Shown: positions 11,340-32,020 of the stretch, in pieces
Numbering within the stretch: the first letter of the stretch is position 1
How the letters are laid out: each line of letters starts with the position of its first letter
Source: a virus
Taxonomy: Duplodnaviria > Caudoviricetes
Reading direction: 5' to 3' (one strand)
IMG/VR virus record: IMGVR_UViG_2627853630_000004
Coordinates: 11,340 to 75,339 of that record
Length of the DNA stretch: 64,000 nucleotides
The notes under the pieces: model-generated
What the model was told of the DNA's origin: nothing
Databases searched by the model: none
The model's input: the letters and a program-made list of their open reading frames with translations, nothing else
Translations under genes and position numbers: made by a program

Positions 11340-11369
11340 TGGTCACCTCCATGACAAAGAAAATAAAAG

Positions 11370-19238: not shown

Positions 19239-21403
19239 GCAGCCACCTGCCATGCGCAGTATTCGGGCAAGTTTGCAGCAACTAATGCCCTTGCCTCTGT
19301 TGGGCAGACGGCATTGCCGCAACGTGCTACCTGATCTTTCTGTGATATTGGGTTTCCATCTGGATCGCGATCGATAATGTAATCAGGCGGGAATCCTTGA
19401 GCGTTATACAACTCGCGTGGCGATAGCATCCGCATGCAAATATCGATGATGACGTAATCACCAACGCGCAGGTATTGACGCCGCGGGGCTGGGAATAGAT
19501 GGGGGTCATCAGGTAAATCACTGTACGCCTCAAACAGCCGAGCGCAGCACCATGCGTTATATCGTTGTTCGTCAGTTAATGGCTGTATTTCGCATTCAAC
19601 TTCAGTCAGTCCGAATCGATCCCGCGTCGGAATTGTGTGCATCGGTTCAGTGATAGAAACGCCGTCACGCTCATTGCCGTAGTATTTTGTCAGATACGCC
19701 TGAACATGCCCGACATGTTGACCACCAGCGGTGATTGTTGGTACCGGCTCTGTTGATTGCTGCCCATCTTGGCAGGTTCCACGCAACTTGATGAGGTGTG
19801 ATGAGCACAAGGAATGATGATCGACCTGAGTTACTGTATGCAGCGGTTCATCCATGCAACAACCTGGCCCAGAGTAACCACCGCCGTAATGCTTAATCAG
19901 GTTGGCTGCGATAACAGCTTTATGTGATGACGTCGGTACCGTGTCGTATGGCGCGTTAATGTCACGCGGTTTTCCCGAATACTTGGGGCCACCAGCACCA
20001 ACCAAAATTGCAGATAATAACTGGCTCTTTCCACCGCCCCCCGCAGTGACAGTTCCTAGCGGGGTATCTACGGGGTTAGCTGTGCTATTACCGAACTGAC
20101 GTACAACCACAGGAGCGGCAATACTAAATCCGTGCGCCTGCGTTATCGTCTGTAATGGCTCCCGCAACGATTGACCTCGGAAACAGTCGTACGCACTGCG
20201 ATTGCTGGTGTGATTACACTTAACGGCGAATGGCTCTATCAGCAGATGTTCCGCTTTGCTGGTGACGGTCGTAATGGGCTGATTTACGGAATACGACAGC
20301 CGGTCACCACCGAAACCAGTTTGCCCAATCCGCACGATATACGGCTCAGGGTTATTAATCACAAACCGATCCAAACCCCGAACGATGCGTTTTAACGTAT
20401 TGTCTGCCAGCGGCTTTTTCCGGCCTAAAATGGAACGTGTCGGTAGTGGCCAGTCAATGCAATCAGCAGCTGTTCGCCACGGTTTTAAATTGCCCTCGGA
20501 AAATTCCTTCGATCGTGGATCACCATACTCCGCTGCTGGCCACTCAACTGGCCGCCCGTCGCATCGTGCAACAACATACAGGCGCTTTCTGATAGTCGGC
20601 GCGCCAGACATGTACGCCTTGCGCTCCCTGTGATCAACGTTGTAACCCAAGCCCTTAACCAATTTTTTGGCATCAGGGCCGTTAATGTCGATATTCAGGA
20701 ATTCGCAACACTCAGCCAGCGCCGGATGATTCGCGGGAATGCCAGTGCTCAACATGCCAATAAACGCGTTAAATGTTTCACCTCTTTTGGCTGGGTCTGG
20801 GTAATAGTTACCCGCCTTTTCAACCAATGGCCCCCATGACCGGAACTCTTCAACGTTCTCCATCATCAGCACGCGCGGACGGGTCGCCAGCGCCCAGCGC
20901 AGAATCACCCACGCCAAACCGCGTATCTCCTTCTTAACTGGCGTGCCGCCCTTCGCTTTTGAGAAGTGACGGCAGTCTGGCGAAAACCAGCCGAGCAATA
21001 CAGGCAGACCACCCGTTGAGACAACCGGATCGACGCTGAAGATGTCTTCGGGGTAATGCAGCGTACGCGGGTGATTCATTGCGTGCATCGCCATCGCTAC
21101 AGGATTGTGATTCATTGCGATGTGCGGCTCGAATCCTAACGCTTGTTTGATGCCCTCGCAGCTCCCGCCGCCACCAGCGAAACCGACAACCACCAGCCCG
21201 TTTTCAACATCAGGCCGAGCGATTTCTATCGCTTGGCGCCGCGCCCATTTGTGAGCCGCCTTTTGAATGTCTGCCGGGTTTTCTCTGCGTAAAAACATTC
21301 CGTGCATTTCTGAGAGAAGCGCCTCTCGGCGCTCCGGTGATAATTGATGAACGGGTATCACGGATGAGGCGCATTGCTTAACTTCTGTAGGCCAATCACT
21401 CAT
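19235..21403 (-). CDS. DNA (cytosine-5) methyltransferase, orphan, with a large repeated target-recognition region
   Basis: Motif I FAGGGG, SPDC, ENV, RKR and C-terminal GNAV; repeated P(L/M)HT(V/I)T units. Confidence 0.9.
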   Translation of the reverse strand: MSDWPTEVKQCASSVIPVHQLSPERREALLSEMHGMFLRRENPADIQKAAHKWARRQAIEIARPDVENGLVVVGFAGGGGSCEGIKQALGFEPHIAMNHNPVAMAMHAMNHPRTLHYPEDIFSVDPVVSTGGLPVLLGWFSPDCRHFSKAKGGTPVKKEIRGLAWVILRWALATRPRVLMMENVEEFRSWGPLVEKAGNYYPDPAKRGETFNAFIGMLSTGIPANHPALAECCEFLNIDINGPDAKKLVKGLGYNVDHRERKAYMSGAPTIRKRLYVVARCDGRPVEWPAAEYGDPRSKEFSEGNLKPWRTAADCIDWPLPTRSILGRKKPLADNTLKRIVRGLDRFVINNPEPYIVRIGQTGFGGDRLSYSVNQPITTVTSKAEHLLIEPFAVKCNHTSNRSAYDCFRGQSLREPLQTITQAHGFSIAAPVVVRQFGNSTANPVDTPLGTVTAGGGGKSQLLSAILVGAGGPKYSGKPRDINAPYDTVPTSSHKAVIAANLIKHYGGGYSGPGCCMDEPLHTVTQVDHHSLCSSHLIKLRGTCQDGQQSTEPVPTITAGGQHVGHVQAYLTKYYGNERDGVSITEPMHTIPTRDRFGLTEVECEIQPLTDEQRYNAWCCARLFEAYSDLPDDPHLFPAPRRQYLRVGDYVIIDICMRMLSPRELYNAQGFPPDYIIDRDPDGNPISQKDQVARCGNAVCPTEARALVAANLPEYCAWQVAA

Positions 21404-21482
21404 GATCCACCACCTGATTTTTATCAGAGCGAACGACAGTCGCGCCTAGCACGTTTAATTGAGTGGTTGATAGCGTGGTCAT
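21396..21482 (-). CDS. 28-aa small ORF coupling into the methylase (not in ORF track)
   Basis: GAGGCAAGACCAAATG start; MTTLSTTQLNVLGATVVRSDKNQVVDHE; overlaps the upstream stop and the methylase ATG. Confidence 0.5.
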   Translation of the reverse strand: MTTLSTTQLNVLGATVVRSDKNQVVDHE

Positions 21483-21733
21483 TTGGTCTTGCCTCGTTTT
21501 TGGTCGTGATATTCGCGCCAGTAATTTAAGCGCGCTCTAAAATGTTCCCGATACTGCTCCGCTACCGTGTCCAGCTCTTTTTCAACGTTCCGGCGCAGGG
21601 CTTTTCCTGCTATGAGTTGATTTATTAACTGGTTGGCGCGCAGGTCTAGCCATTCCATATCCCTGAATTCCTGCGGCCACTCACCACGGTTATGAGGCAG
21701 TCCGGGCGGCAGGTAATCTGATTGCCCGGACAT
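21479..21733 (-). CDS. Hypothetical phage protein
   Basis: 84-aa ORF, GAGG SD, closely packed in the pR operon. Confidence 0.7.
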   Translation of the reverse strand: MSGQSDYLPPGLPHNRGEWPQEFRDMEWLDLRANQLINQLIAGKALRRNVEKELDTVAEQYREHFRARLNYWREYHDQKRGKTK

Positions 21734-21736
21734 GGG

Positions 21737-22123
21737 TTATGCCTCTATGGGTTTTATCGTGTCGAGAAGAAGACGGGCGCGAGTCGGACCACCAGCGCGG
21801 GTGCCAGTGTCCTTGTAATAAAACTCGCCAGTGCCAACCACCCACGTAGTCGGGGTTTCACGTAATTTAACCGTGCGTTCCCCGCCCACACGGACAACGG
21901 TTCCCGTGTGGGTTTTCTTTGTTGTCAGCCGTTTCTTACCTGACGTTTTCGGGAGTGGGGAAAATTTCGGCGCAACAACTTGCCGCGGCGCGGGAGCTGG
22001 CACGTACGGTGAGCGTGTGCGAGCGCGGGCGTTTGCGTTCATAGCCCAAAGAATTGGGCCGGTGTGGTCGCAGCCGTCATCGGTCATGAATGCGCGTGCG
22101 TAAATAACATCAGTTGTAATCAT
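21737..22123 (-). CDS. Hypothetical basic phage protein
   Basis: 128-aa ORF starting at GAGGCAAGACCATG. Confidence 0.7.
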   Translation of the reverse strand: MITTDVIYARAFMTDDGCDHTGPILWAMNANARARTRSPYVPAPAPRQVVAPKFSPLPKTSGKKRLTTKKTHTGTVVRVGGERTVKLRETPTTWVVGTGEFYYKDTGTRAGGPTRARLLLDTIKPIEA

Positions 22124-22169
22124 GGTCTTGCCTCTTTTTTTGGTCGGTTAAGCGCTGGTCAGGCGCGGT

Positions 22170-23582
22170 TTAAAATTCTTCAATCGGTTGTTTCTTGCTG
22201 TATCGCCTGTCTTTCTCCTGCCCTTTCTCTGCCAGCGATCGAGCCTCATTCGTTGGGATATTCTTGATATATCCATCAATCATCTGTGCGTACGCTGTTC
22301 CGCTCGGCCCCTCACGATTCAGTCGCACAATGAGTTCCATTAGGGTTTTATCCGCCTGCTCGTTGTAGACAGCGTCACGGTATAGCCCGATCCAAACATC
22401 ACAATCCTGTTCGATCTGGCCGGTGTCTTTACTGTCTGAGGGCTGTGGCCGTTTGTCCGCGCGCTCTTCCAGTTTTCGGTTTAACTGCGTCAGCAGCAGC
22501 ACGATGCAATCCAATTCTTTAGCCAGATTTTTTAAGCCGGTTGTTATCGCGCCGTAACTGATGTCGCGGCGTTCCGCTTCCTCGCCTTTCATCAGTGTTA
22601 GGTAGTCCACAGCGACTAAACCAACGTGCCCCCGCTGACGTTTAACTTTTCTGCTCTCTGCTACGATATGGGCAAGTGACACGCCCGGCGTACTGTCGAT
22701 CATCAGATTTGATTCGGACAGTTCAGCGGCTTTAGCCATTGCCAGCGCCATTTTTGAATCGTCGTATTCGCCGTTGTAAAACAGGTTTGAACTGATGAGC
22801 GCCTCTTGTGCGATCATTCGTTCAATAATCCCCCTGTCAGTCATTTCAAGGCTGAAAACCAGCGACGGGAGGCGATGATTTAATGCGAAATGCGTAGCGA
22901 TTTTGTTGTATGTCGCGGTCTTACCCATTTTCGGGCGTGCCCCAACCACGATGAGTGAGCCACGCAACGCTTGCTTAGGTGCCATGATTTCATCCAGCCC
23001 CTCAATGCCGAGCGTCAAGCCAGCTCCACCCGCAGGATCACTAAATCGGCGCTCAATCTCATCAACCCAATCGCCAACGACATCAGTCGCAGGCCGCAAC
23101 CCTCCCCTACGTCCAGTGCTGGCATGATCGACAACAGCGGTGATCATTTGCTGCACGCTGCTTAATCGGCTTTCGACTGTAGCGCCGCCGCTGGAGCTGA
23201 CGATCTCAATGCATGAGTAGAGTTTTTCCAGCGTATAGCGCAGCACTGCTTTTTCACGCACGATGCGAGCGTATGCGAGTGTGTTTGCAGCTACTGGCAC
23301 CCGTGCCATTTCAGCCAGATATGCCATTCCCCCAACGGTCACCAATTCACCGTTTGATTCGAGTAATTCACTCAGGGTTATCAGGTCGGTCGGCTTTTCA
23401 GATCGCGACAGTTCAACCAGACGACGATAAATAATTTGATGTGCGCGCAGATAAAACGACTCAGCTTTCAGCAGGGACATCACAGCATGGCGGCGCTCAT
23501 CGTCAGTATTCAGCATCAACCCGCCGATAACGGCCTGCTCTGCTGATGAGCTGTGCGGAACAACAGGAATATCATTGGTCAT
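22170..23582 (-). CDS. dnaB: Replicative DNA helicase (DnaB family)
   Basis: AEQAVIGGL, GARPKMGKT, FSLEM, VDYL, QLNR, QIEQDCD. Confidence 0.95.
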   Translation of the reverse strand: MTNDIPVVPHSSSAEQAVIGGLMLNTDDERRHAVMSLLKAESFYLRAHQIIYRRLVELSRSEKPTDLITLSELLESNGELVTVGGMAYLAEMARVPVAANTLAYARIVREKAVLRYTLEKLYSCIEIVSSSGGATVESRLSSVQQMITAVVDHASTGRRGGLRPATDVVGDWVDEIERRFSDPAGGAGLTLGIEGLDEIMAPKQALRGSLIVVGARPKMGKTATYNKIATHFALNHRLPSLVFSLEMTDRGIIERMIAQEALISSNLFYNGEYDDSKMALAMAKAAELSESNLMIDSTPGVSLAHIVAESRKVKRQRGHVGLVAVDYLTLMKGEEAERRDISYGAITTGLKNLAKELDCIVLLLTQLNRKLEERADKRPQPSDSKDTGQIEQDCDVWIGLYRDAVYNEQADKTLMELIVRLNREGPSGTAYAQMIDGYIKNIPTNEARSLAEKGQEKDRRYSKKQPIEEF

Positions 23583-24342
23583 TAGCGCGCTCCTCTTTCA
23601 CGGCGACATAGCAACGCTCAGTAACCAGGTAATCGATGTTTTTGCGTTTCCAGAATCCACCCCGCCCATTAGATCGGTCTTCCATCATCCAGCGGCAATG
23701 CACGGAGATATATTTCAAATAGGCCTGCCAACGCTCAGGAGTGAACTGGAATTTTTTCCAGAACGCTCGGATCGTTTTTTTTCTCGCGTCAGTCAAAATC
23801 TGAACGCGTGGCATGTCTGGAAGGGTTTCGTGGTACACATCCAGAATTTTTTGATAATCAATTTTTTCAGCTGGCGGATTATCTGCTGGTGGAGCAGGCT
23901 CGCCTGATTCACCAATAACAGGTTCATTGACTGGTTCAGAAGGGTGACTGGTTCTGGTGCCATCTGACGCCACAGGGGGTGTGCTTTCTGGTGGTACAGG
24001 TGGGTTTTCTGGTGACTCACCTGTGTTTTCTGACACCACAGGGGCTGTGATTTTTGGTGGCACAGGGTTATCGAGCGTCAGATAGTAAACGTTCGACGTG
24101 TTCCCCTTCCCATTATTCTCACCGAGCCTGTTTTCTTTTGACAGAAAACCCATTTTTATCAATGCGGTGATGTGTGCTTTAACGGCACTTTTGCTGCACT
24201 CGCACTGATCCGCAACATGCTGATATGACGGCCAGCACTCACCTTTGTCATTCGCGTTATCGGCCAGCTTAATGAGAACCAGCTTTCGCAGTGGGTTACC
24301 GACTTTGCGGCTCATGGCTTTTGCCATTAGGTTCATGCTCAC
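23572..24342 (-). CDS. Replication initiator (lambda O-like, N-terminal HTH)
   Basis: KLVLIKLADNANDKGECWPSYQHVADQCE; internal iteron-encoded linker; upstream of DnaB. Confidence 0.85.
   Translation of the reverse strand: MSMNLMAKAMSRKVGNPLRKLVLIKLADNANDKGECWPSYQHVADQCECSKSAVKAHITALIKMGFLSKENRLGENNGKGNTSNVYYLTLDNPVPPKITAPVVSENTGESPENPPVPPESTPPVASDGTRTSHPSEPVNEPVIGESGEPAPPADNPPAEKIDYQKILDVYHETLPDMPRVQILTDARKKTIRAFWKKFQFTPERWQAYLKYISVHCRWMMEDRSNGRGGFWKRKNIDYLVTERCYVAVKEERANDQ
23841..24070. other. Probable replication origin: iterons plus AT-rich tract inside the initiator gene
   Basis: Degenerate repeats about 21-24 bp apart (GTGCTTTCTGGTGGTACAGG, GGGTTTTCTGGTGACTCACC, GTGTTTTCTGACACCACAGG, GTGATTTTTGGTGGCACAGG) at about 23950-24070; AT-rich 23845-23868. 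Confidence 0.65.
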
Positions 24343-24343
24343 G

Positions 24344-24571
24344 CTACACCCCCAGCGATTCCGCTAACTGACGGCACGCATCCTGATATTCGTCCGGCGA
24401 TAGATTCATCTCACGCAATTCCGATTTGCGCTGTTCGTATTGCTCCCATACAGAGAGCGCTTCAGCCCTGCGGCCATCAAAGACAGGTTCAATATCACTG
24501 ACGCTGGCTGGTTCGCCATTCAGCAAAAAGCCGTTCCTGTACGTGATTCGAATTCGGATCCTGGTGTGCAT
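24344..24571 (-). CDS. Hypothetical phage protein; start reassigned to ATG 24571
   Basis: GAGGCAAGACCAATG SD-start; MHTRIRIRITYRNGFLLNGEP. Confidence 0.65.
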   Translation of the reverse strand: MHTRIRIRITYRNGFLLNGEPASVSDIEPVFDGRRAEALSVWEQYEQRKSELREMNLSPDEYQDACRQLAESLGV

Positions 24572-24593
24572 TGGTCTTGCCTCGCTATGCAAC

Positions 24594-25046
24594 TTATGCA
24601 ACTAACTGCTGAGTAACTGGCAACAGCGCATACATCGCCTCTGTCGCTTTATTTATTCGTTGTGACATGTCACAGCATCCGAGCAGCACAGCATTCATCG
24701 CTGTGGAAAATTCACGGATGGCCACTGCCGTCAGGTAGTTAACAGATCGGTCATTCTGCAAACGTGCCCGTCGTTCCCCCGGTAGAGCTGCAAGCATCAC
24801 CGGAGCCAGCAACTGGACTTTTCTCTGTGCTGCGCGTGAGTCACTACGCAACCAGCGGAAAATCTGCTGCCTGTTGTTATTTATCGATTTCCAGTCAGCA
24901 ACGCCGCGCTGCTCGATTTCATGCAGCCGGATATGTGGATCGCCACCAGCCAGAAAAAATCGTTTGGTTATCTCGATCGCTACAGTTTCCTGTCCTGCAT
25001 CAACCGCCCATGATTCGATCTCGTTCTTCAGCTCCTGAATATTCAT
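24594..25046 (-). CDS. YdaT-family CII-equivalent transcription factor
   Basis: Follows cro; NNNRQQIFRWL motif; YdaT-type TTGATT-N6-AATCA site directly upstream. Confidence 0.7.
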   Translation of the reverse strand: MNIQELKNEIESWAVDAGQETVAIEITKRFFLAGGDPHIRLHEIEQRGVADWKSINNNRQQIFRWLRSDSRAAQRKVQLLAPVMLAALPGERRARLQNDRSVNYLTAVAIREFSTAMNAVLLGCCDMSQRINKATEAMYALLPVTQQLVA

Positions 25047-25064
25047 TGCGTCTCCTGTCGCAAA

Positions 25065-25082
25065 TTGATTTTTGATAATCAG
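25065..25082. promoter_or_regulatory. YdaT-type operator (pRE-equivalent position)
   Basis: TTGATT-TTTGAT-AATCAG matches the TTGATT-N6-AATCAA repeat recognised by CP-933P YdaT. Confidence 0.7.
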
Positions 25083-25101
25083 ATTTACGCTGATATATCC
25101 G

Positions 25102-25296
25102 TCATTGTTTTCGGTACAGTTCCGGGTTGAATTTGAGTTCTCCGTTAGTTCTGATAGCGGCTTCTGTGGCTCGGCCTTTTGGGATTAGTTTTCCCTCTCG
25201 GGTTCGCCACTGATAAATAGCCTCAGTACTCACTTCAAAGAACTGAGCAACCTTCTCAACTGTTCCGAAATACTCTTCAATTTCGGTTGTAGTCAT
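25102..25296 (-). CDS. cro: Cro-like regulator (YdaS/DicC type)
   Basis: YFGTVEKVAQFFEVSTEAIYQW HTH; divergent from cI. Confidence 0.85.
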   Translation of the reverse strand: MTTTEIEEYFGTVEKVAQFFEVSTEAIYQWRTREGKLIPKGRATEAAIRTNGELKFNPELYRKQ

Positions 25297-25311
25297 TACG
25301 CCTCCCGTTAA

Positions 25312-25374
25312 CTAAGTTTGATTAGACATTAACACCTAATCAAACTTAGATCAACGAGTGCTAAGATAAGTTAG
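25312..25374. promoter_or_regulatory. Right operator: three CTAA-N6-TTAG sites with pR
   Basis: CTAAGTTTGATTAG (25312), CTAATCAAACTTAG (25336), CTAAGATAAGTTAG (25361); minus-strand TTGATC-17-TAATGT. Confidence 0.75.
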
Positions 25375-25384
25375 TTATTTTTAT

Positions 25385-26020
25385 TTGGTGCGCATGATGG
25401 AATCTGTAGGGCAACGAATTAAGCGATTACGAAAAATGACAAAAACGTCTCAAAAGGATTTGGGGCGCTACTGTGGTGTCTCTGATGTTGCTGTTGGTTA
25501 TTGGGAAAAAGACATTAACTCACCCAGTGGGGAGCCCGTTTCCAAGCTAGCCAAATTCTTTAACACCAGCGTTGACTACATTTTGTATGGCACGAAGTTT
25601 GAGGGTGAGTTGATCACTAGCGTTCGCAGGGTTCCAGTTCTTTCGTGGGTACAAGCTGGGTTATTCACTGAATCAACATCGGACCTTATTGATGATTCAA
25701 CCGAGTGGATTGAAACCGCAGCACCGCTATCAGGGCGAGCATTTGCATTACAGGTTCGTGGGGATTCAATGACTAACCCTAACGGGCTTCCCTCAATACC
25801 TGAAGGGGCGATTGTATTTGTTGATCCAGAGGTGGTGGCAGAAAGCGGGCGGATCGTCGTAGCGCGACTCAATGGCACATCAGAAGCCACTATTAAAAAA
25901 CTTGTTATAGATGGCCCAACAAAATTACTCGTTCCCCTAAACCCTCGCTACCCCACACTAACGATCAATGGTAATTGCATCATCATTGGCGTAGTTAAAA
26001 GCGTTCAGTACACTCTTTAA
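25385..26020 (+). CDS. cI: CI repressor, HTH plus S24 autopeptidase (start probably ATG 25394 or 25397)
   Basis: HTH; VQAG cleavage site; GDSM catalytic Ser; TIKKL catalytic Lys. Confidence 0.95.
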   Translation: MVRMMESVGQRIKRLRKMTKTSQKDLGRYCGVSDVAVGYWEKDINSPSGEPVSKLAKFFNTSVDYILYGTKFEGELITSVRRVPVLSWVQAGLFTESTSDLIDDSTEWIETAAPLSGRAFALQVRGDSMTNPNGLPSIPEGAIVFVDPEVVAESGRIVVARLNGTSEATIKKLVIDGPTKLLVPLNPRYPTLTINGNCIIIGVVKSVQYTL

Positions 26021-26051
26021 CCCTCCCTCAGCATAAGCGAAAAACCGATAA

Positions 26052-26102
26052 CTAAGTTTAATTCGGTTTTTTGTTGACATAAAATCTAAGTTAAATTAGA
26101 TT
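26052..26102 (+). promoter_or_regulatory. pL promoter with left operators
   Basis: TTGACA (26074)-17 bp-TAGATT (26097); operators CTAAGTTTAATTCG (26052) and CTAAGTTAAATTAG (26086). Confidence 0.8.
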
Positions 26103-26114
26103 AAATCCATCAAC

Positions 26115-26178
26115 AGCGAACAGGCAGGACGCCCACGAAGTAGCCGCTACCGGCGTATGAACAGGTAGATGATTCGCT
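26115..26178 (+). ncRNA. Structured RNA at the 5' end of the pL transcript
   Basis: Closing stem AGCGAA/TTCGCT enclosing a CTACC/GGTAG hairpin; non-coding. Confidence 0.4.
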
Positions 26179-26304
26179 AAGTAAGGCAAGACCAACCCAC
26201 GCCGCAGACCACGCTCTATGAGTGGCGACGTGGGAAAACAACCAGGCGCAGTTGCGCTGTTTGGGTAACACGTTCTGACAGCGGGAAAGACCGCAAATTA
26301 ATTC

Positions 26305-26380
26305 GGCCCCTTAGCTCAGCGGTTAGAGCTATCCCCTCATAAGGGATTGGTCACTGGTTCAAATCCAGTAGGGGTCACCA
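26305..26380 (+). tRNA. tRNA-Ile2 (CAU anticodon, ileX-like, lysidine type)
   Basis: 76-nt cloverleaf: GGCCCCT/AGGGGTC acceptor, ATCCC-CTCATAA-GGGAT anticodon arm, TTCAAAT T-loop, encoded CCA. Confidence 0.9.
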
Positions 26381-26383
26381 AAT

Positions 26384-26442
26384 TAGCGATCAGGTGATTA
26401 ACGGGTTTCCCTGCTCGTTACCCGGTTCGACTCCGGGCGCTA
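26384..26442 (+). ncRNA. Degenerate tRNA-like element
   Basis: TAGCG/CGCTA acceptor-like stem, perfect T-arm CCCGG-TTCGACT-CCGGG, TAACGGG/CTCGTTA stem; minimal D-arm; no CCA. Confidence 0.5.
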
Positions 26443-26477
26443 TTCGAAATCACGTTGCCATCGTGATAACTGCGAGA

Positions 26478-26536
26478 GGTGTGTAGTCATTGGGCGGTGT
26501 GGGTTTTTGATCTTTCCCCTATCCGCCAATTTTTTT
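26478..26536 (+). ncRNA. DicF-like small RNA or terminator hairpin
   Basis: TTGGGCGG...CCGCCAA stem with a pyrimidine-rich loop and T7 tail in the leftward early leader. Confidence 0.4.
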
Positions 26537-26694
26537 CGCAGACGTAAAAAAGCCCGCCTTGCGGCAGGCTTAGTTACCTCGGATAACCGACCAAAGTATT
26601 TCCGAGAGGTTTGCGGCGCTTACCAGGCGCCGCAAGGCAAGACCAATACCAACTAACGCTGATACTGATCAGCCGTGATTATACGAGGAACGCT

Positions 26695-26988
26695 ATGAAA
26701 GCGCCAGATATCACAACCACGCTGTACCTCCATCTCAACGCATTTACATCTGAACCGTTAATTTGCACATGTGACATGTCACATTTTGGTCATGCGTTAA
26801 TTTCAACGTGTGAAGTCTCCGTGCCATTTCCTGAAATAACCCCCGAATACCTTGCAGAACGCAAGATGTCAGCGTTACGGGAACAGCAACAAAAAATTCT
26901 CTCTGACGCTCAAATCAAGGCGAATGAACTGGAAGACCAGGTTCAGAAATTGCTGTGCGTTGAGCGCCAGAACAGCACCATTAAGTGA
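26695..26988 (+). CDS. Hypothetical early protein
   Basis: GAGGA SD before ATG 26695; coiled-coil C-terminus. Confidence 0.7.
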   Translation: MKAPDITTTLYLHLNAFTSEPLICTCDMSHFGHALISTCEVSVPFPEITPEYLAERKMSALREQQQKILSDAQIKANELEDQVQKLLCVERQNSTIK

Positions 26989-26998
26989 GGGTGAAGAC

Positions 26999-27283
26999 GT
27001 GGGTGATGTAGGTGATTACTACAGGGACTTAAAGCCGTACTTGAAGGAGCAGCGTCGAAAAGCACGAGATGGTGCATATGGGCGTATCAAAGCGTTCTTT
27101 GTTAGAAATGGTGTTCAGTTGGAAGAAGGAAATAACACACTAATTTTCCGCACACCACAAGGCACTGTTTGCTACTACCCACCAAGCCAGAGGATGCAGC
27201 ACAAGCAATTATGGAAAGAATGCAGCCCGACCAGCTGCATGAACTATGTGAAAAAACTAAGAACTGAGAGGCAAGACCAATGA
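26999..27283 (+). CDS. Hypothetical early protein (GTG start)
   Basis: GAGGG SD before GTG 26999; stop overlaps the next ATG. Confidence 0.65.
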   Translation: MGDVGDYYRDLKPYLKEQRRKARDGAYGRIKAFFVRNGVQLEEGNNTLIFRTPQGTVCYYPPSQRMQHKQLWKECSPTSCMNYVKKLRTERQDQ

Positions 27284-29463
27284 CAACAGCAACATTTACC
27301 GCTGCTTTCTTTCCAAAGAAATCAGCTCAAAAAAATGGCGCGATACCGCTAGCAACAGCGATCGAAGCAAAAAGCAAAAAACTGGCAGAAATGGCAGCAG
27401 TTATGCTGCTGGAAGAAACATTCCCTGGTGCCAGTGATAACTTCTTTAAACCAACCATCACCGAGGATTCGATCGGTTCACCCCGTCCAGCCGTTGGAAC
27501 GTTCGATGAGACATTCCTACAGGAAAATGAGCTGGTAGAGGGCGTCTGGCGGCGCATCGAGGCACCGACTCAGCCTAACGATCTCGTCGATTTCTCCACC
27601 CTCTCTTTGCGTGAAAAAATCGCGGCGTTTGCGTTGTATGCGCAATCTGAAATCACCGAGCATGAATTCTCTATGGTGTGTGATTATCTCGATCTGCCGG
27701 ATTTCGATGGCGATGGGGATACTAACGCAGACACGGACAAACTGATCCGCATACTCAGCGGTATTGAATTGTTGGAACAGGCTACTGACGAATTGCTACT
27801 CAGCGTAGTAAATGCCGTTAACGCTCGGTTCCCATCTATCGCAGATGTTGCGGATCGTGAAATTCTGGCCTTTGTTGATACGTTAACATGCGCGCCCGGC
27901 GAAAATGACACGCAAGCGACAAAGCCGCTGATCGCTGGATTGGATCGTGAACGCCAGTACACGCATACGCATCGAACATTAAACCGAGAAGTCGCCCTGT
28001 TCCTGGCTAACGACAACATCACAGATCCGTGGGAAGTAACAGAAGAACAGAAGGTTGCGGGTGATCAGGTGATGAAAAGCGGTGGTGACACGTATTCACG
28101 ATGGTCAACCGAGTTGAGTATGGTTGAGGGCGCGTTAAAAATCCCCCGCCCCATAGTTTTCATCTTGATAAATGAGGCCAAGAAACGCCCTGAATTATTG
28201 CTAGATGCAAACGCGCGTCAGCGGTTCGTTGTTGATTTTCTGGCTGAGCACACACCATCAGAAATCAAAGTTGAAAGCATGGGCAGCGGACGATTCTCTA
28301 TTGATGGCCTGATGGGTGAAACCGCATCAAATCAGGGAGAAAAAACGGAAGTGGTCAGCACGCCTGAGGCTGAAACAAAACAGACTGAAGCCGTTAACCC
28401 GCCAGCAGAAACCATTACGCAGCAGGCCAGCACCGAAGCTGGTGAGCAGATCATTAGCGACGGCACAGTGCAGCAGGCAAAAGAAGCGCTCGATCAGCTG
28501 GGGTACGGCGTTTACGCGACAGAAACGGACGCACCAGCACCAGCACCAGCACCAGCAGACGATTTTCAGCAAAGAGCTGAAGCCATTGAAGCCGAGATCG
28601 CCAAAAAACCAGACGCGGCACGCGGCAATCTATCTATTTGGCAGGGTGTCCAGAGAACCAACCCTGCGCACACAAGGCGGAAAGAAACATGGAAGTGGGT
28701 TAACGGAAAACAAGAGCTATTGCGCGCAGTCACTAGCGTCAACCCTACGTACCAAATAATGAGAGCCACAGAAGTATTTGGACCGTTCGGGTTAGGTTGG
28801 GGGGTGGAAGTTACAGAGGAGCGATTCGATCCCGGATTACCACTAATGGAGCCAGTCTTTGATAGCTCAGGGAGAGAGATAAACCGAAAACCCATGCGTG
28901 ATGGTGATGGATCACTTGTCAGGGCGCTAAACCACACAATGCAAATACGATTATGGTACGTGCTGGATGGTGTGCGCGGAGAGTTTCCCGCTTTCGGGCA
29001 TACGAAATATCTCTATGCAAAGAATAGTGGTGGCATGGTGTGTGACGATGAAGTCGGTAAAAAAAGCCTGACAGATGCCATCACAAAAGGGCTGTCAGCG
29101 CTTGGCTTTAGCGCCGATATCTACATGGGCATGTTTGATGATGACGAATATAAGAATAAAAACGAAGCGGAATTCGGCATCAAAAACGCAAGTGACAAAG
29201 CCGAAGACGTGGTGCGTTTTCGCTCTGAGCTGGATGAGAAATTCACACGGAACGCGGCAACGATGGAGACGACAGTCAGCGTCAATGAACTCAATAAGGT
29301 GTTTGGAGTTCTCGTACGTGAGATCGAAACACATCGTAAAGATGCAGAGGCAAAAGGTGATACAGAATACGCAAAATATCTATCTAGTCGTCTGCGTCGC
29401 CTTACTGAAATAAAAAGCGAGCGTGAAAAAGCACTCAAGGCCACTGAAGGGGAAAAAGCATGA
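27280..29463 (+). CDS. Recombination protein: RecE/ExoVIII-like N-terminal region fused to a Rad52/Sak-like annealing domain
   Basis: N-terminal KKSAQKNG and FFKP..TED as in RecE N-termini; C-terminal YQIMRATEVFGPFGLGWG and KKSLTDAITKGLSALGFSADIYMG. Confidence 0.65.
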   Translation: MTTATFTAAFFPKKSAQKNGAIPLATAIEAKSKKLAEMAAVMLLEETFPGASDNFFKPTITEDSIGSPRPAVGTFDETFLQENELVEGVWRRIEAPTQPNDLVDFSTLSLREKIAAFALYAQSEITEHEFSMVCDYLDLPDFDGDGDTNADTDKLIRILSGIELLEQATDELLLSVVNAVNARFPSIADVADREILAFVDTLTCAPGENDTQATKPLIAGLDRERQYTHTHRTLNREVALFLANDNITDPWEVTEEQKVAGDQVMKSGGDTYSRWSTELSMVEGALKIPRPIVFILINEAKKRPELLLDANARQRFVVDFLAEHTPSEIKVESMGSGRFSIDGLMGETASNQGEKTEVVSTPEAETKQTEAVNPPAETITQQASTEAGEQIISDGTVQQAKEALDQLGYGVYATETDAPAPAPAPADDFQQRAEAIEAEIAKKPDAARGNLSIWQGVQRTNPAHTRRKETWKWVNGKQELLRAVTSVNPTYQIMRATEVFGPFGLGWGVEVTEERFDPGLPLMEPVFDSSGREINRKPMRDGDGSLVRALNHTMQIRLWYVLDGVRGEFPAFGHTKYLYAKNSGGMVCDDEVGKKSLTDAITKGLSALGFSADIYMGMFDDDEYKNKNEAEFGIKNASDKAEDVVRFRSELDEKFTRNAATMETTVSVNELNKVFGVLVREIETHRKDAEAKGDTEYAKYLSSRLRRLTEIKSEREKALKATEGEKA

Positions 29464-30041
29464 GCAGAATTCACCACAACACGGCAATAGCAATTGCCGC
29501 TGATATGTCAAAGCTCCAAAGCCTACTGGAAGATTCTGAGGGTGGTATTGGAGAATTAACGCCAGAAATGATCGAAGACACAATGTCCGGTCTGGAAATG
29601 ACGCTGGCGGATAAATTAGATTCCGTTCTGGTTCACGTTAGAAACCTGGAAGGTCAAGAGGAAACCTGCGACAAAGAAATTAAGCGCCTAAGTGATCGTA
29701 AAAAATCATTCCGCAACCAGGCAAAGCATCTGAAGCAATACATTTTAAATTGCCTGCTGGCGGCCAATCTCGACAAAATCAAAACAACAAAGAACACATT
29801 TACTGCGCGAAAAGGCGTGGTAAATGTGGTTATCGATAATGAATCACTTGTGCCTGACGAATTCGTTAACTTACAGACAATCATAACGCCAGACAAGAAA
29901 GCCATTAAGGAGGCCATAGAATCCGCAGAGGCGGCGGTCGTGGAAATCACCGCGCGTGGCGAAACCCCTCCGGCTGAGTTGTTAAATCCGGTACCCGGTG
30001 CGCACATTGAAATCGGTGCGCGTTCTCTGCAAGTGCGGTAA
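29460..30041 (+). CDS. Siphovirus Gp157 (Mu Gam-like) family protein
   Basis: EIKRLSDRKKS, DKKAIKEAI, VPGAHIE..RSLQVR. Confidence 0.8.
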   Translation: MSRIHHNTAIAIAADMSKLQSLLEDSEGGIGELTPEMIEDTMSGLEMTLADKLDSVLVHVRNLEGQEETCDKEIKRLSDRKKSFRNQAKHLKQYILNCLLAANLDKIKTTKNTFTARKGVVNVVIDNESLVPDEFVNLQTIITPDKKAIKEAIESAEAAVVEITARGETPPAELLNPVPGAHIEIGARSLQVR

Positions 30042-30076
30042 CGGCTGACCACCGTATAGCAAGCGAGGCAAGACCA

Positions 30077-30253
30077 ATGCTAAAAATGAGCGCGCAGCGC
30101 GGGGACGTTATTCATATTGTTTTTGCTGATGGCCGGAATGGAATGATCGCAGTTCAATCACGCAGTGTGCTGGCGATTCATTTTCCGCCAGATGTGAAAA
30201 TAACGCGTGAACGTCGCCAGCAGGAAAAACTGATTAACGATAATCAGAAATAA
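30077..30253 (+). CDS. CsrA/RsmA-fold RNA-binding protein, 58 aa (not in ORF track)
   Basis: MLKMSAQRGDVIHIVFADGRNGMIAVQSRSVLAIHFPPDVKITRERRQQEKLINDNQK; M1, L2, G9, I14, P37, V40, R44, E45 match E. coli CsrA without gaps; GAGG SD. Confidence 0.75.
   Translation: MLKMSAQRGDVIHIVFADGRNGMIAVQSRSVLAIHFPPDVKITRERRQQEKLINDNQK
30230..30247. promoter_or_regulatory. Second YdaT-type operator (pI-equivalent position)
   Basis: CTGATT-AACGAT-AATCAG upstream of the small ORF, xis and int. Confidence 0.6.
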
Positions 30254-30300
30254 CCCGCCATTAGCAATACCGTGTGACCTCCATTTTACAGGGGGTCACA

Positions 30301-30507
30301 ATGCAAGTATGGAAACCGGGCAAGTGCCTGTTATCTGAGTTCGATATTAAAATCGGTCGGCTGTCTGCAAGCGTAAGGAAGACCACTCTAACGCAACAGG
30401 ATATAGACCAGTCTTGTGCAGCAGCCGACGCAATCATTGATAAATTAAGGCAAGACCATGACCGACCTGTTAACCGACGACGAGCTAATAGAACTGACAG
30501 GCTATAA
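30301..30507 (+). CDS. Hypothetical small protein
   Basis: AGGGGG SD before ATG 30301; MQVWKPGKCLLSEFDIKIGRLSASVRK. Confidence 0.6.
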   Translation: MQVWKPGKCLLSEFDIKIGRLSASVRKTTLTQQDIDQSCAAADAIIDKLRQDHDRPVNRRRANRTDRL

Positions 30508-30673
30508 GTATGCGTCGAAGCAACGCGCCGCTCTAACCCGATCCGGCATTTCGTTTATCACCCGTAGGGATGGGCGACCCAGCGTCACATGGGCGGCAAT
30601 TAATGCCAGCCTATCCACTGTGAAAGCTGAGCAATTTAAAGACGTTGAACAGCCTAATTTTGATGCGATTTAA
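30458..30673 (+). CDS. xis: Excisionase (DUF4224 family)
   Basis: LLTDDELIELTGYK..SKQ..L...GI.F..RRDGRP; EQPNFDAI; directly before int. Confidence 0.8.
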   Translation: MTDLLTDDELIELTGYKYASKQRAALTRSGISFITRRDGRPSVTWAAINASLSTVKAEQFKDVEQPNFDAI

Positions 30674-30675
30674 TC

Positions 30676-31701
30676 ATGGCTCGTAAACGTAAAGATCCCC
30701 GCGATAACGCATTACCGCCACGCGTATATCGCGGGAAAAGTAAATATGAATTCCACCCGATTGGTGGCGGCTCTATTTCACTATGCCCTCTCGATTCCCC
30801 CATTCCACTAATCTGGGAGAAATACGACGCGGCAAATAATTATCGCGAGGAAAAATTTACTCTGGAACGAATGGCCGGGCGATTTATGCAATCACCAGAC
30901 TTCCTCGATCTCGCGAGTGAAACACAAAAGGACTACCGGAAATACTCTGCGAAAATAATTCCAGTTTTTGGGGGGATGTCGCCGGATTCGATTAAACCTG
31001 AACACATCAGGAAATACATGGATAAACGGGGCGTGAAAAGCAAGACGCAGGCGAACAGAGAAAAGGCGTTTCTTTCGCGAGTATTTCGGTGGGGATACGA
31101 GCGGGGGCTATGTAAAGGCAACCCATGCAAGGGCGTTAAACAGTTCAAAGAGGTGGCGCGAGATCGTTACGTGACTGATGACGAGTATAACGCCCTGTAC
31201 TCCGTCGCAGCTCCATTTGTCCAGGTGGCTATGGAAATAGCCTATCTGTGTCTCTCACGGCAGGGGGATGTTCTCTCGCTGACTGAGGGGCAAATATTAG
31301 ATCAGGGGATTTTTATCGCTCAGGGAAAAACGGGCGCAAAACAAATCAAGGCATGGACGGACAGGCTGAGAGCCGCTGTAACAAATGCACGTAACTTGCC
31401 AATAAAACCGGGCATCAGCAGTATGTACATAATCCATCAACCGACCGGAGGGCGCTACACTCGCGACGGATTCAACAGCCGCTGGCAGCAAGCCAAAGAA
31501 GATGCGGCCACGGCGTTCCCACACTTGAGCTTTGATTTCACTTTTCACGATCTCAAGGCTAAAGGGGTTTCAGATCTCGATGGGACGTTAGCAGAAAAAC
31601 AGGCAATATCGGGACACATGACAATCAGCCAGACAGCACGATACGACCGAAAGATACCGATCGTTCCTGTTGTGGGTGGTCAGAATAAAAATTCAAAATA
31701 A
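30676..31701 (+). CDS. int: Tyrosine integrase of prophage 1
   Basis: RQGDVL, KTG, FHDLKAK, SGH and RY catalytic motifs; next to the tRNA fragment. Confidence 0.95.
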   Translation: MARKRKDPRDNALPPRVYRGKSKYEFHPIGGGSISLCPLDSPIPLIWEKYDAANNYREEKFTLERMAGRFMQSPDFLDLASETQKDYRKYSAKIIPVFGGMSPDSIKPEHIRKYMDKRGVKSKTQANREKAFLSRVFRWGYERGLCKGNPCKGVKQFKEVARDRYVTDDEYNALYSVAAPFVQVAMEIAYLCLSRQGDVLSLTEGQILDQGIFIAQGKTGAKQIKAWTDRLRAAVTNARNLPIKPGISSMYIIHQPTGGRYTRDGFNSRWQQAKEDAATAFPHLSFDFTFHDLKAKGVSDLDGTLAEKQAISGHMTISQTARYDRKIPIVPVVGGQNKNSK

Positions 31702-31729
31702 TTGCATATTCACCAAACACGCAAAAATC

Positions 31730-31751
31730 ATATTAGGAAGAATATTAGGAA
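31730..31751. repeat. Probable integrase arm-type sites (ATATTAGGAA twice)
   Basis: Direct repeat between int and the att core. Confidence 0.55.
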
Positions 31752-31766
31752 AGGCGGTTTTAGGTA

Positions 31767-31789
31767 CAAAAAAACCGCCTTTCGGCGGT
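31767..31789 (-). terminator. Terminator downstream of the tRNA-Leu 3' end
   Basis: ACCGCC-GAAA-GGCGGT followed by T7 on the minus strand. Confidence 0.75.
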
Positions 31790-31835
31790 CTACGACATTG
31801 CACATAAGTGCTTGTTTTAATTCGTATTAAATCAA

Positions 31836-31890
31836 TGGTGCCCGGGGCGGGACTTGAACCCGCACAGCGCGAACGCCGAGGGATTTTAAA
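31836..31890 (-). pseudogene. leuZ: 3' half of tRNA-Leu(TAA), leuZ-type: att junction between the two prophages
   Basis: Minus strand TTTAAAATCCCTCGGCGTTCGCGCTGTGCGGGTTCAAGTCCCGCCCCGGGCACCA; similarity stops at the anticodon loop and the 5' half is absent. Confidence 0.9.
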
Positions 31891-32020
31891 AAGTTACACC
31901 ACATCAAATAAAACAATAGGTTAAGTGATATCAAATGGTTGCGCATACGCAATAACACGAAATTTCACGCCACTCCTGTTTTTGCTGCCACCGAAAAACG
32001 AGATTCCGCCACTACAATTA

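Follow-up and report, generated by a model that had tools for sequence, protein, structure and literature searches.

We describe a noncoding module in the early region of a temperate phage related to Pectobacterium phage ZF40 that may be the template of a small antisense RNA. The stretch of DNA analyzed here (the window) comprises 64,000 nucleotides (nt), positions 11,340 to 75,339 of the IMG/VR record IMGVR_UViG_2627853630_000004, and is part of a 75-kb provirus record (75,339 bases). The leader of one of its two early operons, transcribed from the equivalent of the promoter pL, contains two clusters of the tetramer ACCA that a first-pass annotation of the sequence had interpreted as a CsrB/RsmB-like sponge for a phage homologue of CsrA. 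The explanation that we favor, to which we give about even chances, is a different one, namely, that the second cluster (~26546-26675) is the template of a conserved minus-strand small RNA that converges on the pL operon and whose UUGGUC elements match a motif at the start sites of six early genes. The strand that functions is probably opposite to the one expected for a CsrB-type RNA.

The motif in question is the 11-mer AGGCAAGACCA, which is present in the window in 8 exact copies, compared with 0.83 expected when 1 mismatch is allowed, a count that is reached in none of 100 shuffles. All 8 copies are confined to positions 21484-30458 and are oriented with transcription, the immunity region separating three minus-strand copies on its left from five plus-strand copies on its right, and in 6 of the 8, an ATG follows after 0-2 nt. 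The two copies without an ATG, at 26184-26194 and 26635-26645 in the pL leader (hereinafter, copies 1 and 2), together form a 13-nt direct repeat, and the 11-mer scan supports their membership in the same motif family as the start-site copies, in agreement with the tie drawn in the first-pass annotation. The nearest named phage, ZF40 (~89% identity over 26107-26980), carries 7 exact copies at equivalent places and 2 additional copies with one mismatch, other relatives have 5 to 10 matches each, and between the window and ZF40, the motif is retained while its flanks often diverge. The motif is absent from eight control loci, namely HK022 (10 kb) and seven phages with nothing but the neighboring leader element considered below in common (~3 kb each). 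Short hairpins with CTGACCA-type loops precede 4 of the 6 ATG-linked copies by 19-42 nt; TAACCGACC adjoins the motif at other genes in ZF40 and in the related loci L017 and L024; and the loop sequence of one of the hairpins of the module (H1) recurs beside the motif at start sites, both in the window and in relatives, which we count in favor of the antisense reading. The complement of the motif may also resemble a stretch of 16S rRNA over 8 bases.

The ACCA tetramer that had drawn attention to the two clusters is a fragment of this 11-mer signal, with one occurrence in AGGCAAGACCA. The sites are where they had been reported, with starts at 26191, 26208, and 26241 for the three in cluster 1 (26184-26244), and at 26590, 26622, 26642, and 26648 for the four in cluster 2 (26578-26652), and the same is true of the hairpins CTCGGA-(TAACCGACCAAAGTATT)-TCCGAG at 26578-26606 and TTGCGGCGC-TTACCAG-GCGCCGCAA at 26610-26634, as well as the exact recurrence of the 12-mer TAACCGACCAAA at 22139-22150 on the minus strand. 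Three or more ACCA are found in 0.5% of 61-nt segments and four or more in 0.11% of 75-nt segments, but the word and the segment borders were picked post hoc, so that the enrichment alone is weak, and the recurrence of TAACCGACCAAA, taken alone, is not beyond chance (2 matches with up to 2 mismatches, compared with 4.5 expected). The broader observation, that related motifs with the core GACCA or GACCAA are displayed in hairpin loops, holds, and this arrangement is kept across a wide group of phages.

Read on the minus strand, the second cluster makes up a compact module that consists of a candidate -10 box, a 5' hairpin, the motif complement, the hairpins H2 and H1, and an intrinsic terminator (Table 1). 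In the window, the loops of the proposed RNA are CUUUGGUCGGUU and CUGGUAA. The minus-strand terminator was called by the terminator scan directly to the left of the two hairpins, where it forms a convergent pair with a plus-strand hairpin at 26490-26536, and in the distant relative L085, both members of the convergent pair are called by the tool. The window module folds to -65.3 kcal/mol (z -6.9) on the minus strand versus -51.1 kcal/mol (z -5.2) on the plus strand; the corresponding ranges are -56.6 to -65.6 and -35.0 to -44.8 kcal/mol in 8 of 8 close homologues, and for each of the 23 distinct module sequences, the better fold is that of the minus strand. When the cells of the predicted pairs are counted, Watson-Crick, G·U, and unpaired combinations number 156, 63, and 13 on the minus strand versus 156, 0, and 76 on the plus strand. 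The terminator stem is fully paired on the minus strand, where a constant U·G corresponds to C·A on the plus strand, and one pair passes from G:C through G:U (L017, L018, L020, and L024) to A:U (L026), a series that is paired on the minus strand only. Similarly, the pairing of the 5' hairpin is maintained in 103 of 104 cells on the minus strand, includes an A:U to G:C double change in L024, and is preserved with different inner sequences in other lineages. The assignment of the second cluster to the pL transcript in the first-pass annotation sits poorly with these patterns, given that the terminator, the G·U pairs, and the extra 5' hairpin work on the minus strand only.

The module is widespread among related phages. 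The alignment of close homologues comprises the window, ZF40, and the loci L010, L015, L017, L018/L020, L024, and L026, whereas L012, L013, L016, L019, L025, and L027 were dropped as chance pattern matches in unrelated sequence. A strict module pattern recovers 41 of 81 sources, which represent 23 distinct sequences, and misses the window itself, where the H2 loop differs. In a motif-independent sample of 80 loci, anchored on the gene for a 58-amino-acid (aa) protein located ~3.4 kb away (44-95% protein identity), the module is present in 67 under relaxed criteria, and the prophages that carry it are found in Pectobacterium and in a few E. coli. Copy 2 is conserved in all 8 close homologues, most of which were found with patterns that contain copy 2. 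In the hairpins, stems vary around constant loops. Between the window and ZF40, H1 has two compensatory stem changes and an identical loop, and across the 23 distinct module sequences, varied stems enclose a loop that contains UUGGUC; in H2, at least five unrelated stem sequences carry the same hexaloop, and RNAalifold detects compensatory changes in the helix. The ACCA that the H2 loop displays on the plus strand is itself not conserved, the loop being GACAAA in ZF40 and GACCAA in most relatives. Three UUGGUC elements, one beside the motif complement and one in each hairpin loop, are found in 22 of the 23 distinct sequences. The terminator exists in three unrelated stem sequences, and in 23 of 23 distinct modules, its U run belongs to the minus strand. 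For 16 sequences, RNAalifold reports compensatory changes in 12 of 23 predicted pairs, from an alignment that is imperfect for H1 and the terminator, the latter being mis-drawn; column-wise counts of the H1 pairs on the close-homologue alignment were spoiled by a shift of one column.

The module and the distant start sites also vary in concert. Position 4 of the motif in the module copy gives AGGAAAGACC in 60 loci and AGGCAAGACC in 7 (n = 67), and across the 80 anchored loci, the letter is A in all copies in 72, C in all copies in 5, and mixed in 3. In the 67 loci with a module, an ATG-linked copy has the same letter as the module copy of its own locus in 222 of 225 cases; all three exceptions are T, which is G·U-compatible in two C-type loci. 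Such a pattern in the compared sequences shows that the leader and start-site copies evolve together. The candidate -10 box, TATAAT, is invariant in 8 of 8 close homologues and is replaced by TATACT, at the same spacing, in the A-type lineage.

Under the proposed mechanism, the small RNA would be transcribed on the minus strand from the TATAAT box at 26683-26678 and would end at the 26571-26550 terminator and its U run. The loops and the single-stranded stretch of this RNA would pair with GACCA(A) and AGGCAAGACCA elements that lie on the ribosome-binding sites of the six early genes or immediately before these sites, and the ATG-less copies of the pL leader, the one in cluster 1 (26184) among them, would be further targets. 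The pairing, we infer, would lower the translation of the motif-bearing genes. The same RNA would also be fully complementary to the pL transcript in the region immediately before the open reading frame (ORF) at 26695.

By sequence, the elements of cluster 1 can be read as plus-strand partners of whatever recognizes the motif. Copy 1, which comes directly after the separate element at 26115-26177, is followed by a long hairpin that contains CAGACCA, and then, by a small hairpin whose loop is GAAAGA; copy 1 is conserved in ZF40 and found in a different leader context in L010, L018, L020, L024, and L026. Related leaders of quite different sequence still carry ATG-less motif copies and GACCA-loop hairpins at this place, with 2-4 ATG-less copies per leader. 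In the metagenome relative L026 (900-2100, minus strand of the locus), the leader comprises three units of the form [hairpin]-CG-AGGCAAGACCAATACCA, along with a further motif copy followed by an ATG, and one of the three units lies inside a remnant of the outer stem of the neighboring 26115-26177 element.

Several observations weigh against the antisense reading. Neither the scan of the window nor that of L085 called a minus-strand promoter, and the -35 region is poor (2/6 by eye); the -10 box adjoins the Shine-Dalgarno sequence (SD) of ORF 26695, so that its conservation is ambiguous. The 5' hairpin sequesters five bases of the motif complement, and the H2 loop in the window lacks UUGGUC. A strand rich in G and U always folds better than its complement, so that the energy gap partly reflects composition. 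The search patterns that yielded most of the close homologues include the motif or the terminator, which amounts to an ascertainment bias. The switch between A and C at position 4 is essentially one event between two lineages that could also have been produced by gene conversion, and the T found in the A-type locus L091 is not G·U-compatible. In L024, copy 2 has an ATG in frame and so could be an ordinary start site. The evidence from RNA libraries, finally, amounts to one contig without strand information, from one run and one relative. Four small RNA-seq runs of a single study contain the sequence of a relative; in the runs X1, X2, and X4, contigs cover the repressor gene only (25374-26023), and we did not count the lack of coverage over the module in these runs as evidence. 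In run X3, a contig of 1781 bases extends from 25413 to 26648 and continues into adapter-like letters, which implies that many fragments end at 26647/8. This position lies two bases past copy 2 on the plus strand and, on the minus strand, at the base before AUUGGUCUUGCC; a minus-strand RNA may begin here or a plus-strand RNA may finish here, and the contig counts in favor of the antisense reading as a weak hint of a discrete RNA end.

Among the competing explanations, the one that fares best, although we consider it doubtful, is recognition by a protein. The plus-strand GACCA(A) loops and the ATG-less copies would then be pL-leader sites, either operators or decoys, for an RNA-binding protein of the phage or the host that also binds the six start sites, which is the idea of the first-pass annotation without CsrA. 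The protein could be a translational repressor similar to T4 RegA or an antiterminator that reads boxB-like hairpins. In favor of this explanation, the recurrence of the same six-base loop on unrelated stems is typical of protein recognition, the same hairpins also fold on the plus strand with a z of -5.2, hairpins with a CTGACCA loop lie upstream of 4 of the 6 ATG-linked copies, and the leaders contain multiple ATG-less copies. A binding protein leaves unexplained, however, the minus-strand terminator, with its U run kept in three unrelated stem types, as well as the pairs that are only G·U-compatible and the 5' hairpin that forms on the minus strand only, and no candidate protein was found, with no RNA-binding families among 10 early ORFs and no CsrA.

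Action of the minus-strand RNA in cis only is, in our estimate, unlikely, but it is a live rival, and the first-pass annotation had itself set an effect confined to ORF 26695 against its own proposal. Under this explanation, the RNA would act solely on the overlapping pL transcript, in the manner of P22 sar or lambda OOP, by cleavage or termination upstream of ORF 26695, and the likeness to start sites elsewhere would exist because copy 2 was once the start site of that ORF. This explanation draws on the same structural and terminator evidence as action in trans, and perfect complementarity to the overlapping transcript is guaranteed. In L024, a locus found with a different pattern, copy 2 (2468-2478) is followed by an ATG in frame with the homologue of the 26695 ORF, which it extends by 16 codons, so that, judging from this sequence, some phages can use copy 2 to start translation. 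The C-type and the distant A-type lineages both have the copy without an ATG, however, which makes it unlikely to be a recent relic. Action in cis, moreover, does not require three UUGGUC elements or the concerted A/C change with distant start sites, and about 20 nt separate the module from the SD of the ORF (26686-26690), with no overlap with the start of the gene.

We consider it improbable that there is no regulatory RNA at all and that the motif is a favored ribosome-binding cassette or a recombination linker, with the leader copies as debris and the clustering of ACCA resulting from a composition rich in A and C. The motif is indeed an island of identity amid diverged flanks, the enrichment of ACCA is nominal only, and GACCA is not enriched in small loops window-wide (13/91 compared with about 21/126 in shuffled sequences). 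At one motif copy in L010, the body of a gene is preceded by the upstream context of a different gene. What this explanation fails to account for is the conservation of hairpins with compensatory changes, invariant loops, and convergent terminators, and the retention of an ATG-less copy in 67 of 80 loci.

Two observations on the motif concern the genes that it precedes. In L010 (1010-1020, minus strand), a motif copy has the upstream context of one gene on one side and the coding start of a different gene on the other, as seen by comparison with 30066 in the window and 7704 in ZF40, a junction that, from the sequence, suggests recombination at the motif. In the window, a motif copy precedes the 28-aa ORF at 21396-21482 on the minus strand; in ZF40, the same motif heads the 278-aa gene gp18, followed by two further genes, and then, by the counterpart of the 722-aa ORF, annotated as a putative methylase; the arrangement in the window looks like a deletion that spared the start site.

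The original proposal, that of a CsrB/RsmB-like plus-strand sponge for a phage CsrA homologue that is released by processing of the intervening tRNA, is very improbable and, at the level of homology, largely refuted: no CsrA homologue was detected, the loops contain no GGA, there is no match to a Csr/Rsm family, and the tRNA is optional. The several loop-displayed copies of one motif do recall such sponges, and the product of the 58-aa ORF (phrog_2482) is the most CsrA-looking protein of the phage, with a superficial resemblance to the eye (17% identity in a gap-free alignment). The CsrA fold is an interleaved dimer with five strands and a helix. The model of the 58-aa protein (predicted local distance difference test score, pLDDT, 85.9) has five strands and no helix, and a monomer model cannot show an interleaved dimer; 1 of 10 members of the 58-aa family matches Pfam CsrA at E=0.048; and in the ESM Atlas, the rank-5 cluster (score 0.85) has CsrA in 59% of its members, which we treat as a lead only. 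Against these leads, a search of the 75,339-base provirus in six frames with Pfam CsrA (PF02599) gave no match, while positive controls were detected; the 58-aa ORF matches no Pfam family at E<=10 and gives no BLASTP alignment to a Pectobacterium CsrA; and hhalign assigns the alignment with CsrA a probability of 0.44%, with a weak profile of 11 sequences at 89-97% identity. Foldseek and VIA-align searches with the model listed no CsrA chain. The profile of the 58-aa family matches instead a repeat of a biofilm-associated surface protein in the PDB (E=6.5e-7). The CsrA identity of this ORF was accordingly rejected on the results of Pfam, BLASTP, hhalign, the PDB profile, Foldseek, and VIA-align. 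As a separate observation, the same family profile also matches repeats within very long proteins. GGA is absent from the plus-strand loops TAACCGACCAAAGTATT and TTACCAG and from their minus-strand complements, and Rfam at E<=5 on 25900-26800 returned no Csr/Rsm family. Processing of the tRNA cannot be an essential release step, because an ORF takes the place of the tRNA in ZF40 and L010.

The proposed minus-strand RNA has partial parallels among known regulators. P22 sar and lambda OOP overlap the start or the end of their target gene and act in cis; the candidate described here would likewise be a short phage RNA against an early operon, with an intrinsic terminator and antisense to the operon transcript, but it ends upstream of the SD of the next ORF, and its three motif copies are complementary to start sites elsewhere. 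The c4 RNA of P1/P7 and the CI RNA of P4 are cut from the same strand as their targets. The likeness to these lies in a small phage RNA complementary to short repeats in early transcripts that blocks ribosome binding or elongation, and the difference is that the candidate RNA would come from the opposite strand, the motif complement being absent from the transcribed strand of either early operon in a scan of the window. The CsrB/RsmB-type sponges display many GGA motifs in hairpin loops. With CsrB, RsmB, and RsmZ, the module shares the succession of several hairpins with the same short motif in each loop, but the motif is GACCAA/UUGGUC rather than GGA, Rfam has no Csr/Rsm match, and no CsrA partner was found.

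The motif is similar in kind to the start-associated sequences (SAS) of Cluster K mycobacteriophages and their extended form (ESAS), which, in the relevant passages of PMC3203893, are described as a short asymmetric repeat a few bases before start codons, mostly ATG, in one orientation and confined to the non-structural half of the genome. According to the same passages, SAS combines an SD core with conserved bases that cannot pair with 16S rRNA, an inverted repeat immediately precedes about half of the copies, copies without an adjacent gene are rare, and the authors left open whether the binder is an RNA or a protein (PMC3203893). The distribution of AGGCAAGACCA, near starts (6/8 within 0-2 nt of an ATG), in one orientation, and in 21484-30458 only, parallels that of SAS as described there, and the upstream CTGACCA-type hairpins recall the "extended" form (PMC3203893). 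The Cluster K consensus is unrelated to AGGCAAGACCA, however, and so are the host phylum and the phage group, so that the likeness is one of kind and not of descent. In addition, the oppositely oriented, terminator-bearing module that we describe carries the complement of the motif and is a candidate partner in trans, of a sort that the passages of PMC3203893 do not describe. We found no earlier description of the module: it has no Rfam family, and the literature searched does not mention it; in the accessible text of the ZF40 genome paper, "motif", "Shine-Dalgarno", "ribosome binding", and "terminator" have zero occurrences. A search of the whole window with Rfam at the gathering score returned the tRNA only, and in every record examined, the module is either unannotated or overlapped by a "hypothetical protein" call.

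The surrounding early region has a lambda-like layout in mirror image, with a cro-like gene, a cII-like gene, and replication genes leftward from ~25296 (Table 1). The site at 26074-26102 is the sole promoter-like (sigma-70-type) site called in a scan of 24800-27400, related phages have a promoter after cI at the same position, and this promoter is the pL equivalent. The plus-strand hairpin at 26490-26536 was not called by the terminator scan, its loop exceeding the length limit of the scan; its counterparts are called in L085 and L091, and G·T pairs in relatives preserve the stem on the plus strand only. Judging from its sequence, this hairpin would terminate a short pL-leader/tRNA transcript. 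The ORF that follows the module yields 3 close relatives only when used as a search anchor. The cII-like ORF at 24597-25046 on the minus strand (phrog_163) matches the Pfam domain YdaT_toxin (E=2.3e-27).

Table 1. Coordinates in the window of the minus-strand module, the motif copies, and neighboring features
Feature	Position	Strand	Remarks
Module as minus-strand RNA	about 26546-26675	-	~100-130 nt (predicted)
Candidate -10 box TATAAT	26678-26683	-	5-7 nt upstream of the 5' hairpin
5' hairpin, 13 pairs, 4-5 of them G·U	26641-26670	-	Minus strand only; includes the first five bases of the motif complement
Motif complement UUGGUCUUGCCU	opposite 26635-26645	-	Between the 5' hairpin and H2
Hairpin H2	26610-26634	-	Loop CUGGUAA in the window, UUGGUC in most relatives
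Hairpin H1	26578-26606	-	Loop AAUACUUUGGUCGGUUA contains UUGGUC, complementary to TAACCGACCAAAG
Intrinsic terminator	26546-26571	-	Hairpin 26571->26550 and T run; 9 pairs, 6 GC, tail TTTTACGTCT
Motif copy before 28-aa ORF	21484-21494	-	28-aa ORF overlaps the start of the 722-aa ORF
Start site of 128-aa ORF with motif copy ending in ATG	22123-22150	-	TAACCGACCAAA 5 nt upstream of the motif copy
Motif copy before 75-aa ORF (phrog_2465)	24572-24582	-	Motif scan
Motif copy 1, ATG-less, AGGCAAGACCA then ACCC	26184-26194	+	Contains the first ACCA site of cluster 1
Motif copy 2, ATG-less, then ATA	26635-26645	+	The minus-strand RNA is proposed to pair through the complement, UGGUCUUGCCU
Motif copy before 727-aa ORF	27269-27279	+	ZF40 homologue gp07 annotated as putative exonuclease
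Motif copy before 58-aa ORF (phrog_2482)	30066-30076	+	Motif scan
Motif copy before 71-aa excisionase-like ORF (DUF4224, phrog_1266)	30448-30458	+	Motif scan
LexA/cI-like repressor gene	25385-26020	+	Terminator directly after the gene
pL-type early promoter TTGACA-17-TAGATT	26074-26102	+	Overlaps palindromic operator 26083-26102
RNA element of ~65 nt	26115-26177	+	Match of model R1 at 26106-26192; starts a few bases after the pL start
Long leader hairpin with CAGACCAC, second ACCA site of cluster 1	26195-26232	+	Minimum free energy fold of the leader; 90% identical in ZF40
tRNA between the clusters	26305-26380	+	ARAGORN: tRNA-Met, anticodon CAT
Terminator-like hairpin TTGGGCGG...CCGCCAA, then seven T	26490-26536	+	Read from the sequence
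First ORF after the module, 97 aa, phrog_2479	26695-26988	+	Own SD GAGGA 26686-26690, ATG 26695
58-aa ORF, phrog_2482	30077-30250	+	Most CsrA-looking ORF

Upstream of cluster 1, the pL leader begins with another conserved RNA element, at 26115-26177. This element is near-invariant and directly follows the cI-like gene and pL in 9 of 9 phages aligned (ZF40, SfV, ST64B, phiNP, YeP1, AH07, Kp4866-6, 689R6, and the window), has five pairs with compensatory changes, and is predicted to form a three-way junction. Matches to the stretch around it exist in 768 of 5426 E. coli genomes, and the 15 records listed either leave this stretch unannotated or label it "hypothetical protein"; Rfam (E<=5, 25900-26800) has no family for the element. 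It is present in 7 of 84 related loci, independently of the antisense module. By position only, it is a candidate cis antiterminator. The put RNA of HK022 consists of two stem-loops, in the available text of PMC9378689, and the likeness to it, as far as that text goes, is that of a conserved RNA of ~65 nt within a few bases of the pL start and upstream of terminators. The differences are the predicted three-way junction as opposed to the two stem-loops described there, the lack of a fuzzy match to HK022 and of a match of model R1 in HK022 22000-32000, and the lack of a second R1 match in the window, with no copy after pR.

The tRNA between the clusters may, from its sequence, be an AUA-reading tRNA-Ile2, given that tRNA-Ile is the annotation of all six of the best E. 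coli matches listed (81% identity). The ORF that takes its place in ZF40 and L010 encodes 107 aa (gp09), and the relative in run X3 has the tRNA followed by 394 extra bases. A tRNA-like remnant is discernible at about 26385-26445 on the plus strand, with a T-arm-like hairpin, CCCGG-TTCGACT-CCGGG, and flanks that could form an acceptor stem; it is called neither by ARAGORN nor by the Rfam tRNA model and is conserved in ZF40 and L010.

The antisense reading allows a further extension, which we consider rather unlikely, to a gate made of RNA only. In a lysogen, the minus-strand RNA would silence the six motif-bearing genes, including the excisionase; when pL fires, convergent transcription would turn off the promoter of the small RNA, the leader, with its 2-4 ATG-less copies and GACCA loops, would absorb the leftover RNA, and all six genes would be released together once the leader threshold is passed. 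Such a gate would retain the sponge and timer of the first-pass annotation, with an antisense RNA in place of CsrA, and, if true, would provide a concrete partner and a purpose for the start-associated sequences of phages.

Taken together, the existence of the motif family and of a conserved, terminator-bearing module on the opposite strand that carries the complement of the motif three times makes a direct test of these relationships possible. If the model holds, a single small RNA would govern the translation of a set of early genes that includes an excisionase and a putative recombination nuclease, and a post-transcriptional layer would be added to the repressor-based control of lysogeny in the ZF40-like phages.

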